From IMG/VR virus record IMGVR_UViG_3300042881_004667: a stretch of 64,000 nucleotides of DNA; one strand, written 5' to 3'. The stretch is from an uncultured virus (IMG/VR IMGVR_UViG_3300042881_004667) (lineage: Duplodnaviria > Heunggongvirae > Uroviricota > Caudoviricetes). Below are positions 1,777 through 26,576 of this stretch, in pieces. Position 1 is the first letter of the stretch. Each line of letters begins with the position of its first letter. Below the pieces are notes generated by a model. It worked only from the letters and a program-made list of their open reading frames with translations, was not told the origin of the DNA and searched no databases. The translations under genes and the position numbers were made by a program.

Positions 1777-1986
1777 ATGGCTCTTTCTAATCAAGTTAAA
1801 GGATCCTTAGATGAAGCAGGTCGTCATCTGCGCGATGCACTTGCTTTTGCAGCACGCACTGAACACCCCGTTACCATTAATGCAATTACGGAGTTAATGT
1901 GTCGTCTTGATTCACTGGAAAAAATTGACATGATTATTGAGAAGTTTGATACCAACCATGAAGTGCCACATTCCTTCCGAGGCTGA
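1777..1986 (+). CDS. hypothetical protein
   Basis: ORF MALSNQVKGSLDEA..., helical, in operon context. Confidence 0.6.
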   Translation: MALSNQVKGSLDEAGRHLRDALAFAARTEHPVTINAITELMCRLDSLEKIDMIIEKFDTNHEVPHSFRG

Positions 1987-2131
1987 ACGCCTCGAAAAAT
2001 ACTTTGCAAGATTAACAAAAGAATTTCCTTACATCATGAGTAAGGAGATAGAAAAAGCGATAGCACGTCCATGTAAGTGGGCTAAAATATTAGAAGAAAG
2101 AGTTACGAATCCTGATGTCTCAGGAGAATAA
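1958..2131 (+). CDS. hypothetical protein
   Basis: short ORF in operon context. Confidence 0.4.
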   Translation: MKCHIPSEAERLEKYFARLTKEFPYIMSKEIEKAIARPCKWAKILEERVTNPDVSGE

Positions 2132-2210
2132 ATACACTAAGCCTGAGTTACGCGAACGTATTAAGGATCGCGTGATGGCAGGATCTAAAGGTGGAAAGCC
2201 TGGGCAGTGA
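2115..2210 (+). pseudogene. orphaned native 5' end of the DUF5872-like gene
   Basis: MSQENKYTKPELRERIKDRVMAGSKGGKPGQ then TGA at the cassette boundary; homologous to 2847-2948. Confidence 0.8.
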
Positions 2211-2854
2211 TTTTGTGCTATAGTAAGAAAAGCACAAACCAACCAATGCAAAAACTTTGCCGAGAATGCGGAACCAGAAAGCCGCATGAAACTTTTTCAA
2301 ACAAAGGATACAACTCAGCCGGCAATATAAAAAGAGACAGTGTATGCAAAGATTGCAAATCTTTAGTTAACCGCCGATTTAGATTTTTGTATGGAGCGGA
2401 CGGTCAAAAACAATGTTCTAAATGTGCTCATTATTTAGATTGGGATTGTTTTAGAAGACGCAAACAAGATGGGAAATTATATCTTCATTCTTCATGTAAA
2501 GCTTGTAACAAAATAACCTGGGATAAATGGGTAGCTAATAATGAAGAGCATTATCAAAAAGTAAAAAAGCAAGGACAAGATTTGCTTCATAAAGAGCACA
2601 AAAAATATGAGCGCAGAGGAATAACAAAAGAACAATACGACATTGTGTTTGAAGCCCAGGAAGGTTTATGCGCAATTTGCCAAGAACCTCCCAAGGATAA
2701 ACAATCTTTAGCCATGGACCATAATCATCAAACCAATGAGTTCAGAGGTTTGTTGTGCAAAGAGTGTAATAGAGCTTTAGGCTTATTTGGTGATAATATA
2801 GATGTATTGACAAACGCAGTCACTTATCTTAAAGAGCGAGGAAGTTATGGCTGA
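2207..2854 (+). CDS. endonuclease VII-family homing endonuclease with N-terminal CxxC repeats (likely start ATG 2246)
   Basis: C-terminal CAIC...LAMDHNH...RGLLCKECNRALG Endo VII signature; AT-rich relative to flanks. Confidence 0.85.
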   Translation: MILCYSKKSTNQPMQKLCRECGTRKPHETFSNKGYNSAGNIKRDSVCKDCKSLVNRRFRFLYGADGQKQCSKCAHYLDWDCFRRRKQDGKLYLHSSCKACNKITWDKWVANNEEHYQKVKKQGQDLLHKEHKKYERRGITKEQYDIVFEAQEGLCAICQEPPKDKQSLAMDHNHQTNEFRGLLCKECNRALGLFGDNIDVLTNAVTYLKERGSYG

Positions 2855-3158
2855 AGACAAAAGCAAGTACACCAAACCAGACCTGCGTGAGCGCATTAAA
2901 AACAAAGTTATGCGTGAAGGCCGTGGTGGTAAACCGGGAGAATGGTCGTAGCCGTAAGGCTAACTAATTATTTCGGCCCGTAAGGCTCAGCTTGTTGCTA
3001 GTGAGTACAAAGAAGCTGGTGGTGGGTACAAAGGCGGCAAGGGTGAGAAGCAAAAAGATTTAGAGAAGTGGGGCAAAGAAAAGTGGATGACCAAAGATGA
3101 GTATGAAAAGAGAGGCAAGGCTAAAGCTGCAGCTAAGAAATATAAGGAGAGTAAGTAA
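2847..3158 (+). CDS. DUF5872-like basic protein, N-terminal half; join(2847..2948,2976..3158) by putative ribosomal bypass
   Basis: MAEDKSKYTKPDLRERIKNKVMREGRGGKPGEWS + ARKAQLVASEYKEAGGGYKG... in the same frame; conserved GGKPGxWSARKAQL is rebuilt only if the gap is skipped; final TAA overlaps next ATG; family name recalled from memory. Confidence 0.7.
2946..2975 (+). other. putative programmed translational bypass element
   Basis: TCG (take-off), TAG, hairpin TAGCC-GTAA-GGCTA, ACTAATTATT, TCG (matched in-frame landing codon). Confidence 0.65.
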
Positions 3159-4078
3159 TGGAATTATTCCAGAAGTTTTTAAATCGTGTAAGCCGTGGCT
3201 ACGGTCAAGTAGATAAAAATGTGTTTGGTGGAGTGCTACCTGGCGGGTCTGATAGTCGGTTGGTTACTTCTCCGCAAACTACACTAACGCGTAAAACTCA
3301 AAAGATTACAAACGCAATTACTCCTGTCAATATTCGCGATAAAGTTGTCATTCCTATTTTAGATAAGGGTATTGAAAGTGGAATACTTCCTGCCGCCCCT
3401 GCAATGTTTGCACGTTATTTAAGTGGCACTGATGCTCCTTTAACAAGTTTACCTGCATCAATTAAGCAAGACGTTTCCAGGCTTGCTTCTCAACAAATTA
3501 ATCCAGAAGAAACGGCTCAAGATATTTATAACAACACAATACGTAAAAGAGCTTGGCAACTTTGGGATGAAGCTTGGAATACCAAAAAAGAAGAAGCAAT
3601 TACTAACGTTAAAGCGCAGCAAGGTCCTCTTCAATTTTTTCGAAAAAATGATCAAAATTGGCTAGAACAACGTGCTCAAGAAAGCCCGCTTGTACAAGCG
3701 GAATATGAACGTTTGTTGGCACAAGATACAAGCCCTGAAAAAACAAAAGCTTTAGCAGCAAAAACAGCATACCTTAATGCAGCTCAAAACAGAGACCCTA
3801 ACGCTCCATTTCCGGTAACTCACTCAACCGCGTATAAAGGCCAAGATTTTAAAATTGGACCATCAACCTTAACCCTTGGCTCGTTTACAGTAAATCCTGG
3901 CACAAGAGAAATAATGGATCGCTACAAATTTGATGATTTAGATAAAGGTAAAAACGTGCAGGGTATCTATCCAGATGCACTTGCTGGGGGCAGACCTGCA
4001 GCTATGTTAATTGATTTTGCTTTAAATAGCGGATTAATCACACCACAAAGCGGTTATGACATCCGCGCTAAATATTGA
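3158..4078 (+). CDS. hypothetical protein (306 aa)
   Basis: long ORF translationally coupled to the upstream gene. Confidence 0.8.
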   Translation: MELFQKFLNRVSRGYGQVDKNVFGGVLPGGSDSRLVTSPQTTLTRKTQKITNAITPVNIRDKVVIPILDKGIESGILPAAPAMFARYLSGTDAPLTSLPASIKQDVSRLASQQINPEETAQDIYNNTIRKRAWQLWDEAWNTKKEEAITNVKAQQGPLQFFRKNDQNWLEQRAQESPLVQAEYERLLAQDTSPEKTKALAAKTAYLNAAQNRDPNAPFPVTHSTAYKGQDFKIGPSTLTLGSFTVNPGTREIMDRYKFDDLDKGKNVQGIYPDALAGGRPAAMLIDFALNSGLITPQSGYDIRAKY

Positions 4079-4110
4079 TAATAAAAACAAATAAGACCAA
4101 TAGGTTAATT

Positions 4111-4314
4111 ATGGCAGACAAAGCAATTCAAAAAGGATATACAAAGCGCTACCTTCCAGAAAAAGCCTGGGCCTCACTGTCGAAGGAAGAACGTGCAGAG
4201 ACAGACCAAAAGAAACGTGCCGCAAGCCGGGAAGGAAAGCAATTTATTCCTAACACTGAGCGTGCAAAGAAAGCAGGACGCGCAGCTCGTCGTTATCGCA
4301 ATAGTAAATCATGA
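4111..4314 (+). CDS. DUF5872-like protein, C-terminal half
   Basis: TKRYLPEKAWASLSKEERAETDQKKRAASREGKQFIPNT resembles the C-terminal part of the family as I recall it. Confidence 0.65.
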   Translation: MADKAIQKGYTKRYLPEKAWASLSKEERAETDQKKRAASREGKQFIPNTERAKKAGRAARRYRNSKS

Positions 4315-4416
4315 TATCTTGACAGTGGAGCAATACCGCTCTGGGACTAATAGTCGAAAAGTCTCTCAACATTACAAACGTAGTGCTTAGCAATAAACAG
4401 AGTGGGAAGGAATTGC

Positions 4417-4444
4417 AACCCCGGCTTGATACACCGGGGTTTTT
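4417..4444 (+). terminator. intrinsic terminator
   Basis: AACCCCGG-loop-CCGGGGTT followed by T run. Confidence 0.7.
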
Positions 4445-4477
4445 GCTGTTATATTAATTATTGGATTTAAAATTCTT

Positions 4478-4711
4478 ATGGCAAGGATTGCAAGCAAAAA
4501 CAGTGGCAGGCCCACTAAACCCAGTGGCCCTAGTAAACCAACACCAGTCCCTAGTAAACCAAAACCAGTCCCTAGTAAACCAAAACCAGGTAGGCCCACT
4601 AAACCCGGTGGCCCTAGTATACCAGAACCATTCCCTAGTAAACCAGAACCATTCCCTAGTAAACCAACACCAGTCCCTAGTAAACCAAAACCAGGTAAGC
4701 CCACTAAATAA
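4478..4711 (+). CDS. Pro/Lys/Ser-rich repeat protein (77 aa)
   Basis: 21-bp tandem units (CCCTAGTAAACCAAnACCAGT) encoding PSKPxPV repeats; bounded by two terminators. Confidence 0.55.
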   Translation: MARIASKNSGRPTKPSGPSKPTPVPSKPKPVPSKPKPGRPTKPGGPSIPEPFPSKPEPFPSKPTPVPSKPKPGKPTK

Positions 4712-4766
4712 ACCTGGTATGCCAGGTCGCACTGCCAGATAAAAGCTACAAAATATTTGTTATGAT

Positions 4767-4791
4767 CCCGGTATAGCAACCGGGCTTTTTT
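4767..4791 (+). terminator. intrinsic terminator
   Basis: CCCGGT-atagca-ACCGGG then CTTTTTT. Confidence 0.7.
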
Positions 4792-4795
4792 ATAA

Positions 4796-5425
4796 GTGGC
4801 ATACCTAAATCACAACCTGCCCGACTGGTCTTGCTACATACGTAATGAGTTTCTTTACAACCACAAGCGGGGTCATGGTGAGGTAACCAAGTGTGATGTG
4901 CACTGCGTTGCCAGCATTGAGAAACGTGTGCCACTCTTTGAAGCGTTCCTTGAGAACGGTGTGAACTGGACCAGGCGTCCACTCCATGCGTTCTGCTGGA
5001 AACCTGATGCACCCATAGAACCGTTGGAGGACGTGATGTATTGGGACTGCTTCTCGCCGTATATCGACGTACAGAAACGTGCACGGCTTGCCGGCTTGCA
5101 AGCTGAATTGATTAAACCCAATGGAGACAAGGCCCTTGGGTCCTACATGTTTACTCTTGATTGGTCATGGGAAAACAAGGGTACGACCGACTTTAATTTC
5201 TCAGAGACACCTGAGCATAAGTGCGCACACCTCTTCAAGATGGAGAGTGGTAATTACTATGCGTATCCTAATAATCGAATCATCTGGTACGACAACGCCT
5301 GGACCTTTAATCGAATCAAGCAGAACCCAGGGTATGAGATTGATATGACGGTGTACTCCGTAGAGAACAAAAGGAAGCTGGAGACATCAGACCACTACAT
5401 GTATGAGATAACAAGTGTAGAATAA
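4796..5425 (+). CDS. conserved phage hypothetical protein
   Basis: 209-aa ORF (YLNHNLP...ETPEHKCAH...YAYPNNRI), a type I recognise from aquatic phages. Confidence 0.75.
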   Translation: MAYLNHNLPDWSCYIRNEFLYNHKRGHGEVTKCDVHCVASIEKRVPLFEAFLENGVNWTRRPLHAFCWKPDAPIEPLEDVMYWDCFSPYIDVQKRARLAGLQAELIKPNGDKALGSYMFTLDWSWENKGTTDFNFSETPEHKCAHLFKMESGNYYAYPNNRIIWYDNAWTFNRIKQNPGYEIDMTVYSVENKRKLETSDHYMYEITSVE

Positions 5426-5693
5426 TCTCGTTCCCCCTCTCTTATGATGGGGCAGATAGAGGGCAAGTCACTGTTACATCCTTGAGGTGTATCACACTTG
5501 CTCCATCTATTACTTAGGGTGCAACAAGGAACGTTGCATTAAACAAAGGATCCCCTCGGCCGCATCGTAGATCATCGTAGGCGGACATCCTTGCCCTTAA
5601 CAACACCCCCTATGCTTAGCTCTCAGATGTAGACCATATTGTTGACGTCAACAAAATGGTTTATAGAGATGATGCACAAACCTGGGGGTCACT

Positions 5694-5767
5694 CGGGGAT
5701 TAGCGCAGCTTGGTAGCGCAATTGCTTTGGGAGCAATGGGTCGCAGGTTCAAATCCTGCATCTCCGA
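5694..5767 (+). tRNA. tRNA-Pro(TGG)
   Basis: acceptor CGGGGAT/ATCTCCG, D arm, anticodon stem ATTGC/GCAAT with loop TTTGGGA, T arm GCAGG-TTCAAAT-CCTGC. Confidence 0.92.
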
Positions 5768-5768
5768 T

Positions 5769-5844
5769 CACCTGGTCCGAGCTAATTGGATAAGACGGTT
5801 ACTGCCGCTGCAGGACGATGTAGGTTCGACTCCTACCCAGGTGC
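5769..5844 (+). ncRNA. tRNA-like element with a non-canonical anticodon arm
   Basis: perfect acceptor CACCTGG/CCAGGTG and T arm GTAGG-TTCGACT-CCTAC, but no 5-bp stem/7-nt loop anticodon arm. Confidence 0.5.
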
Positions 5845-5918: not shown

Positions 5919-6173
5919 GTGACCTGGGACACTGCTAAAAAACGTATCGATAAGAATCGACAAAAGCTTTTGGAGTACAAGAAGACTTTGCAGTGCAAGA
6001 AGTGTGGGCTGAATGATCATCGTGTCCTTGAGTTCCACCACATAGGTGACAAGGATAACAACATCTCATCCATGGTCAACCATGGTTACGCCTGGAGCAG
6101 GGTAGAGGAAGAGATCAGTAAATGTATTCCGCTATGCTGCAACTGTCATAGGCTTGAGCACTGGGTTAGTTAA
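5919..6173 (+). CDS. small HNH endonuclease
   Basis: CKKCG...LEFHH...CCNCHRLEH. Confidence 0.75.
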   Translation: MTWDTAKKRIDKNRQKLLEYKKTLQCKKCGLNDHRVLEFHHIGDKDNNISSMVNHGYAWSRVEEEISKCIPLCCNCHRLEHWVS

Positions 6174-26500: not shown

Positions 26501-26576
26501 TGGTAGCCGACCTCGGATTTGAACCGAGACTTGACGGAGCTTAAATCCGTTGCCTCTGCCGTTGGGCTAGTCGGCC
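26501..26576 (-). tRNA. tRNA with anticodon TAA (Leu), short variable loop, encoded CCA
   Basis: GGCCGAC/GTCGGCT-A-CCA acceptor; ACGGA-TTTAAGC-TCCGT anticodon arm; CTCGG-TTCAAAT-CCGAG T arm. Confidence 0.85.

Follow-up and report, generated by a model that had tools for sequence, protein, structure and literature searches.

In the literature that we searched, programmed translational bypassing in phages is represented by gene 60 of T4 and its relatives, together with one case from a Streptomyces phage. In the part available to us, the preprint of Manning & Atkins (bioRxiv 10.1101/2022.08.31.505936) describes dozens of gene-60-type cassettes, located exclusively in the gene for the topoisomerase large subunit, and calls the cassette unique. 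According to the same text, the element supplies an N-terminal extension that includes a host-homologous region, the cassette ends at the landing codon, and the gap, with reference to earlier work, protects its carrier from the nuclease MobA. Some cassettes are described there as having lost the nuclease and kept the gap, and in others GIY-YIG or VSR nucleases stand in place of MobA, so that a MobA-type nuclease would be no strict feature of the class. An Aeromonas-phage clade in that collection bypasses about 20 nucleotides (nt) with a reduced stem-loop. In the terminase gene of the Streptomyces phage phiHau3, bypassing is reported at a rare UUA codon, and the junction peptide was found by mass spectrometry in E. 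coli (RNA Biol 2023, PMC10732093); the term 'homing endonuclease' is absent from the main text of that paper. Herein, we analysed a stretch of 64,000 nt from an uncultured virus (IMG/VR record IMGVR_UViG_3300042881_004667; hereafter the window), in which a mobile cassette of 766 nt with an endonuclease gene interrupts a conserved phage gene and leaves a 24-nt gap in its reading frame.

We consider it likely that programmed translational bypass keeps the interrupted gene working, while the gap splits the probable target of the nuclease. The original prediction, made from the letters of the window, had proposed a shortened form of the gene 60 hop element with a serine codon, in an unrelated gene and phage, and comparative evidence now lends support to the testable parts of this proposal. 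In the literature searched, in which subscription journals and recent papers may not have been covered, bypassing was described neither for this gene family nor for this group of phages.

Anatomy of the cassette and its insertion site

All features described in this section lie on the + strand of the window. The gapped open reading frame (ORF) begins with the ATG at 2847, and its first segment ends with ...GGT AAA CCG GGA GAA TGG TCG (2948), the last codon of which (2946-2948) is the candidate take-off codon. The following 24 nt (2949-2972) read TAG CCG TAA GGC TAA CTA ATT ATT and place three in-frame stops within nine codons. The TAG (2949-2951) belongs to a perfect hairpin, TAGCC-GTAA-GGCTA (UAGCC-GUAA-GGCUA in RNA), at 2949-2962, which is followed by an AU-rich tail, ACUAAUUAUU (2963-2972), as the last 10 nt of the gap. 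A second TCG (2973-2975), the candidate landing codon, precedes GCC CGT AAG GCT CAG, the beginning of the 60 native distal codons (ARKAQL...KESK; 2976-3158), which are open in the translation. Their stop TAA (3156-3158) overlaps the ATG of the next gene at 3158 (TAATG). Translation gives 34 amino acids (aa), stops, and then 60 aa counted from GCC. The hairpin pattern occurs once in the 64-kb window, compared with 0.02 occurrences expected, and was matched in 2 of 100 shuffles.

To this gene, read through with X at the stops, 731 proteins were matched at E<=0.001; the best 120 of the 731 were uninterrupted and 93-98 aa long, mostly 94 aa. In the homologue alignment, the window has an insert of nine codons directly after W33-S34. 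As the homologues are uninterrupted and mostly of 94 aa, a skip of 27 nt gives back both the length and the register of the family. Most homologue matches carry the precomputed label PF19197 (DUF5872), and the window gene itself matched this family below the cut-off in the Pfam copy used (22.4 vs 27.5 bits); the Pfam search of the read-through translation returned no family. PHROG 17747, of unknown function, matched the gene with an E-value of 1e-20. The structure predicted for an intact homologue (mean predicted local distance difference test score 56.2, predicted template modelling score 0.40) was too poor for a fold search or to tell whether the two halves share one fold.

The gap forms the 3' terminus of a longer insertion. 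Pairs of occupied and empty loci (L006/L078, L009/L071, and L014/L098) have flanks that are 97-99% identical and differ by the insertion of 763 nt plus a TCG, and the window flanks compared with the empty locus L050 gave the same unit, 766 nt in total, at 2210-2975. The cassette lies between the codons for Trp33 and Ser34 (TG/G and the Ser codon) of the DUF5872-like gene of 94 aa. Comparison of L014 with L098 further indicated that the landing TCG is part of the insert, since AGT stands at the corresponding position of the empty allele L098. From 5' to 3', the cassette consists of a leader hairpin, the nuclease gene, a replacement of codons 1-34 of the interrupted gene, the 24-nt gap, and the landing TCG. 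The replacement segment (2847-2948) starts with an ATG that overlaps the stop of the nuclease gene, and its last codon is the take-off TCG. Upstream of the cassette, the native gene start remains as a relic of 31 codons, MSQENKYTKPELRERIKDRVMAGSKGGKPGQ (2115-2210), which is homologous to the empty-site alleles up to 2209; its stop TGA (2208-2210) arises at the cassette junction from the native TG and the A of the cassette.

The nuclease gene (2246-2854) encodes a free-standing homing endonuclease of 202 aa of the Endo VII type with HNH fold (PF02945, E 8e-23; PHROG endonuclease VII, E 1e-33). Within its stretch MDHNHQTNEFRGLLCKECNRALG, the residues D, H, H, R, and N occur in this order, as read by eye and not from an alignment to F-CphI, the Endo VII-motif enzyme considered below. 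Between the stop of the relic and the nuclease ATG is a leader hairpin of 8 bp, formed by TTTGTGCT, an 11-nt loop, and AGCACAAA (2212-2238). It is conserved among related loci and folds at -8.4 kcal/mol (z -1.95), with 8 of 200 shuffles as good; that it acts in expression of the nuclease is a guess. In addition, the cassette leader (2210-2245) looks like the right half of the target in scrambled form, with GCT, six extra bases, and AGAAAAGCACAA (A...RKAQ), and part of this target-like stretch forms the 8-bp hairpin just 5' of the nuclease ATG. Both junctions of the cassette may thus hold a disrupted copy of the target.

These results bear on what had been read from the window at the outset, which is real and lies well beyond chance. 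The matched TCG codons, the three in-frame stops, and the hairpin directly after take-off are present in the sequence as claimed; the protein of 94 aa that a 27-nt skip was said to give agrees with the homologues, and the claimed overlap TAATG is seen. As to boundaries, the 27-nt gap proved real, but it is only the 3' end of the 766-nt cassette, and the relic at 2115-2210 had been missed. Likewise, the coupling of gap and nuclease stood, whereas the replacement N-terminal segment in the mobile unit and the native relic that it leaves had gone unnoticed.

Mobility and conservation of the gapped gene

The 40 loci referred to below are the window and 39 related loci on viral contigs in which a check was possible. 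A nuclease search of viral contigs gave 47 loci, 39 of them with the gap; the other eight were seven distant nuclease relatives (30-45% identity), near which the gene was missing, and one contig ending before the site. The gene downstream was too variable for retrieving relatives and yielded eight weak loci. The gene-family search kept 80 loci, comprising 77 uninterrupted ones and three occupied duplicates of known loci. A close nuclease copy was found beside the gene in none of the 77 uninterrupted loci, and in four gene-family loci a distant Endo VII match lay more than 1 kb downstream. In pattern scans, 51 of 63 viral-contig matches and 77 of 102 metagenome matches had the hairpin in the context of this gene; 76 metagenome matches carried the gap. 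The viral-contig and metagenome collections overlap, and the counts are therefore not additive. Since the gap recurs in dozens of independent assemblies, an assembly error was ruled out.

The cassette is mobile: among close relatives, the same site is occupied in some and empty in others, and cassette and backbone identities disagree. Cassettes were at least 90% identical in 52 locus pairs, and in 31 of these the distal halves were less than 80% identical. The backbone closest to that of the window, L025 (distal half 92% and relic 95% identical), carries another cassette variant, which is 82% identical to that of the window and has a 21-nt gap. In some occupied loci, the landing codon is followed by GCT AGA AAA, where the empty partners have GCA CGC AAG; these codon differences 3' of landing look like variable co-conversion.

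The codons at the two ends of the gap are nearly invariant. Take-off was TCG in 40/40 loci and in 76/76 metagenome matches, for which the pattern had left the codon free. Landing was TCG in 38/40 loci and 72/76 metagenome matches, and otherwise TCT or TCA. The native Ser34 codon, by comparison, was TCT in 37, AGT in 17, AGC in 6, TCG in 3, TCA in 2, and TCC in 2 of 67 unique loci. A UAG stood directly 3' of take-off in all 40 loci; the 76 metagenome matches are no test of this, as the metagenome patterns and the script filter fixed TAG after take-off. Gap lengths between the two codons were 20, 21, 22, 23, 24, 25, 26, and 30 nt, covering all three frames, which excludes read-through and means that the halves can be joined by skipping only. 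Together with the three different stop codons found in gaps, these lengths also ruled out frameshifting and stop-codon reassignment.

The hairpin UAGCC-GNRA-GGCUA was found in 39 of the 40 loci, with the loops GUAA, GCAA, GUGA, GGGA, GAAA, and GAGA, all of the GNRA type; loop position 3, also left free by the pattern, was a purine in 76/76 metagenome matches. In its 3' part, the gap is AU-rich in all listed variants. Pairwise differences amounted to 2.9% at stem positions, compared with 44.6% at four-fold sites of the nuclease gene, and nine distinct cassettes that differ by at most 49% at four-fold sites have an identical 24-nt gap, indicating selection on the gap. At the remaining locus (L026, positions 3198-3230), an AT-rich run, TAGCTATAATATTAAATAATT, takes the place of the hairpin, and TCG/TCG, UAG, and both open halves are kept.

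One residue near the gap is fixed differently in cassette and native copies: position 32 is E in 19/19 unique cassette peptides and Q in 57/57 unique native proteins. The Q32E codon (2940-2942 in the window) creates GGAGAA or GGGGAA 6-8 nt 5' of take-off. The cassette copies of the gene start also have more basic residues at positions 5, 19, 23, and 26. The nascent peptide may contribute to the process, and the fixed Q32E change may serve bypassing, nuclease immunity, or both.

Both halves of the gapped gene were open in 40/40 loci. Among 34 unique cassette-borne starts, the ratio of non-synonymous to synonymous substitution rates (dN/dS) was 0.14, and among 28 unique copies of the nuclease gene it was 0.076, these being pooled Nei-Gojobori values over non-independent pairs; the cassette-borne start is accordingly under purifying selection. 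For the distal half, in which synonymous sites were saturated, the ratio of the corresponding proportions of differences (pN/pS) was 0.15-0.19. Ten further contigs all have the gap and intact halves; three of them encode a full nuclease (50-53% identity), five retain remnants only (L203, L204, L205, L208, and L209), and two have neither nuclease nor relic (L211 and L212). L039, L040, and L043 resemble these nuclease-loss contigs, and their gene is intact. Between L211 and L212, synonymous differences reach about 30% and non-synonymous ones 4-6%, and the frame-shifting gap of 26 nt is identical. The deletion variants keep the last 50-60 nt of the nuclease gene, with a Shine-Dalgarno (SD)-like run 5' of the 34-codon segment. 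These findings are the opposite of free decay.

The deletions themselves (L203, L204, L205, L208, L209, L039, L040, and L043) are independent and tend to end around residue 141-183 of 202. In L208 only nuclease codons 1-21 and 172-202 are left, and in L205 codon 14 of the relic is fused to about codon 172.

The predicted association of the gap with an adjacent Endo VII gene was thus borne out in 39 of 39 checkable relatives as well as the window and by the 77 uninterrupted loci without a close nuclease. The codon match and the stem, which were expected to be conserved, are so while four-fold sites diverge. As for the decay of insert and distal half that the original prediction had named as evidence of a pseudogene, the opposite was found, with both intact in 40/40 loci and in the nuclease-less contigs.

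The proposed bypass and competing explanations

In the reading that we favour, translation would begin at the cassette-borne ATG at 2847 and proceed to the take-off UCG. With tRNA-Ser on this codon and the UAG of the 5-bp GNRA hairpin in the A site, the peptidyl-tRNA would leave the mRNA, the ribosome would slide across the 24 nt, and re-pairing on the cassette-borne landing UCG would allow decoding to continue into the native distal half. The outcome would be one full-length protein, as in T4 gene 60. Because the cassette carries its own codons 1-34, the promoter-distal 60 codons of the gene would still be usable. In the DNA, the gap interrupts the gene's most conserved stretch, GGKPGQW/SARKAQ, which is likely to be the recognition site of the nuclease; carriers would therefore be immune to their own nuclease, and empty alleles would be cut and converted. 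The insertion geometry and the report on T4 MobA both suggest this shielding role.

Several points weigh against the bypass reading. The argument for the hop is built from sequence, and the recognition and cleavage site of the nuclease is putative. L026 lacks the hairpin, yet both of its halves are open. No compensatory covariation was seen among the predicted pairs (0/9); the stem and a predicted flanking helix (GUCG with CGGC) are invariant at all positions, so that compensatory changes cannot be counted. The gap of the window alone folds modestly better than shuffles (z -2.0; 9/200 as good), and in 71 nt of context it folds no better than they do (z -0.61). An SD-like triplet 5-7 nt 5' of landing is absent, unlike in most T4-type cassettes; the nearest SD-like run to landing is the AAGG/GAGG inside the hairpin. 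The substitution ratios, as stated, come from non-independent pairs, and the conservation of the distal half could partly result from repeated recent homing into intact genes.

Re-initiation is the strongest rival. Here, termination at the UAG would release the 34-aa peptide, and ribosomes would start again on a nearby non-canonical codon with the aid of the SD-like AAGG/GAGG of the hairpin, giving a separate distal fragment of 60-62 aa that works with the short peptide. Every variant does have an SD-like AAGG, GAGG, or GGAGG in the hairpin's 3' half, and of 86 unique contexts, 57 have an in-frame AUU or AUA just 5' of landing and five an in-frame AUG or GUG further upstream; these start-like codons also count against bypassing. 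In 24 of the 86 contexts, however, there is no start or near-cognate codon; gaps of 25 nt have UGA directly 5' of landing and hence zero open codons, and gaps of 26 nt leave one open codon there, CTA, which is not a start. In the window, the distal half has no canonical start, as originally claimed, and only CTA ATT ATT stands in frame between the last stop and TCG. Re-initiation would also leave unexplained why a matched Ser codon that is rare in native genes occurs in nearly all copies and why the cassette-borne start ends exactly at S34. We therefore regard it as unlikely.

A different view is that the selfish cassette has broken the gene and that its apparent conservation reflects constant fresh homing into intact alleles, in which case the 34-codon segment and the gap would be passengers serving the nuclease only, as homology arms or as a disruptor of the target site. 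Some insertions are recent, the two flanks of L006 and L078 each being 99% identical, and divergence is greater in the distal halves than in the cassettes, which is what movement of cassettes between backbones would produce. Homing, however, cannot renew the cassette-borne start, which has the low dN/dS given above and is intact at every locus. Contigs in which the nuclease is deleted or reduced to a remnant keep both halves open, the contrast of synonymous and non-synonymous change between L211 and L212 accompanies an unchanged gap, and the deletion variants have retained the translation-initiation region 5' of the 34-codon segment. A broken gene is accordingly quite improbable. We give still less credence to removal of the 23-33 nt from the mRNA by a cutting-and-joining activity of unknown nature that recognises the hairpin. 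Variable gap lengths in all frames are compatible with any mechanism of removal, but splicing has no need of a repeated codon, and no mechanism of this kind is known. Rfam found no family, self-splicing introns included, in 1900-3400 (one sub-threshold match elsewhere had an E-value of 0.76); with no ribozyme core there and only Endo VII found by Pfam in the nuclease, neither a group I or II intron nor an intein was detected. Of four metatranscriptome runs, one gave a contig of 696 nt that covers 2488-2995 of a relative with 91% identity and has the gap in place, and no contig showed a joint skipping the gap, runs X16, X17, and X19 covering only parts away from it. This contig could come from contaminating DNA in the RNA library, which makes it a weak point in favour of bypassing and against removal.

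Genomic setting and relation to known systems

The window is a tailed-phage genome with genes for DNA polymerase, single-stranded DNA-binding protein, terminase, and head proteins. A blastn search of the 1800-4200 region against 50,697 phage records gave weak partial matches only, namely S-EIVl (distal half) and S-SRM01 (Endo VII), so that Synechococcus phages were the only ones matched at this locus, and in a tblastn search with the nuclease no match among cultured phages exceeded 60% identity. The cassette therefore appears to be confined to uncultured contigs. For an ORF of 209 aa at 4796-5425, the match was PHROG 3704 (E 6e-51), a family that bears the label ferredoxin and falls in the auxiliary metabolic category; this is consistent with a phage of a phototroph. 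The window also contains a second small HNH endonuclease ORF of 84 aa at 5919-6173 (PHROG 2255, E 6e-20), adjoined by a tRNA-Pro(UGG) gene (5693-5769), as well as a tRNA-Leu(UAA) gene at 26501-26576. Proline/lysine-rich repeats of the PSKPKPV type (+ strand) at 4387-4779 are open in several frames on both strands.

Outside the viral contigs proper, the take-off motif is carried by two contigs of 2.9 and 2.7 kb (L315 and L316) that had been binned into metagenome-assembled genomes of Bacteroidota; these are probably phage fragments inside the bins and are too short for a host to be named from them. The hairpin sequence was also found in two unrelated conserved contexts, followed in one by AGGGGAGACGGTTACA and in the other by TTTT..AGCGTCGATTTTCCGTCCGCTGAGTACCGC, the latter including contigs labelled gut metagenome. 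The loci concerned are the viral contigs L139, L160, L167, and L198 and the metagenome contigs L218, L239, L245, L251, L255, L272, L278, L280, L288, and L290; these hairpins may be other structured RNAs.

If bypassing is confirmed here, hopping would become a general means by which selfish nucleases shield the genomes that carry them, and the phenomenon would seem not to be restricted to the ribosomes of enterobacteria. Such genes would be annotated by gene callers as pseudogenes or as pairs of fragments, so that similar cases are probably being overlooked. The family would also supply more than 80 natural variants of a much shorter element (23-33 nt) for mechanistic work. A broader proposal, which we put forward tentatively and hold to be possible but doubtful, is that the gene-60-type take-off module (matched codons, a stop codon in a tetraloop hairpin with the stem UAGCC/GGCUA, and an AU-rich tail) is independent of any single topoisomerase element. 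It would be a portable device with which different homing endonuclease families, in different genes, render their carriers immune while the gene survives, and with gaps down to 23 nt it would also work in freshwater hosts, probably cyanobacteria, on their ribosomes.

A known system close to the present nuclease is F-CphI of cyanophage S-PM2, the founder of the homing endonuclease family with the Endo VII motif DHHRN (Mob DNA 2018, PMC6083498). Both are free-standing phage nucleases with a C-terminal Endo VII catalytic domain, which in the window occupies residues 120-196 of 202 (PF02945); unlike the window nuclease, F-CphI is not described with a coding gap in the portion of that report available to us. 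With self-splicing introns and inteins that carry homing endonucleases, the cassette shares the problem of a nuclease gene placed in a conserved gene whose product has to be kept. It differs from them in that no intron family matches, the nuclease is out of frame with the host gene, and restoration would take place at translation. The terminase gene of phiHau3 is likewise a phage gene decoded across a coding gap, as the sequence suggests here; in the available text on that phage (PMC10732093), the trigger is a hungry UUA codon, and gene and signals are different.

In its logic and in most of its signals, the cassette resembles gene 60 of T4. On NC_000866, the T4 gap reads GGA, TAGCC-TTCG-GGCTA, 27 more bases, ATTATT, and GGA, in agreement with the stem and the ATTATT end given in the original prediction. 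The two loci have in common the 5-bp UAGCC/GGCUA stem that holds the UAG under a stable tetraloop, an AU-rich 3' portion that ends in the six bases ATTATT before landing, matching take-off and landing codons, and a UAG directly after take-off. The arrangement of a free-standing nuclease gene, an element-borne N-terminal segment, the gap, and the end of the element at the landing codon is also that of T4 gene 60 and MobA, and copies without the nuclease retain the gap, as described in part of the T4-type cassettes. The two gaps need not be homologous, and the common stem could be convergent; if it reflects common descent, the module would have moved between nuclease families and phage groups.

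The differences are equally clear. The target is a DUF5872-like protein of 94 aa and not the large subunit of a topoisomerase; the nuclease of the window matches PF02945 (Endonuclease_7), whereas the T4 MobA fragment matches PF01844 (HNH). The codon pair is Ser UCG here and Gly or Asp in the T4-type cassettes, and the gap is 23-33 nt when one codon is counted, compared with about 50 nt in T4. Most T4-type cassettes have a mini-SD 5-7 nt before landing, which is lacking here. Instead of dividing the host protein into two functional subunits, the present element duplicates the entire gene start and leaves a relic behind. As far as the available text of Manning & Atkins goes, a short gap is also a trait of the Aeromonas-phage clade, so that gene-60-type cassettes can be far below 50 nt, but that clade lies in the topoisomerase gene, has MobA, and shows a reduced hairpin, which is fully kept in the present element. 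Taken together, these comparisons suggest a second cassette family of T4-type logic, which sits in a different gene and a different group of phages and has a nuclease of a different class.

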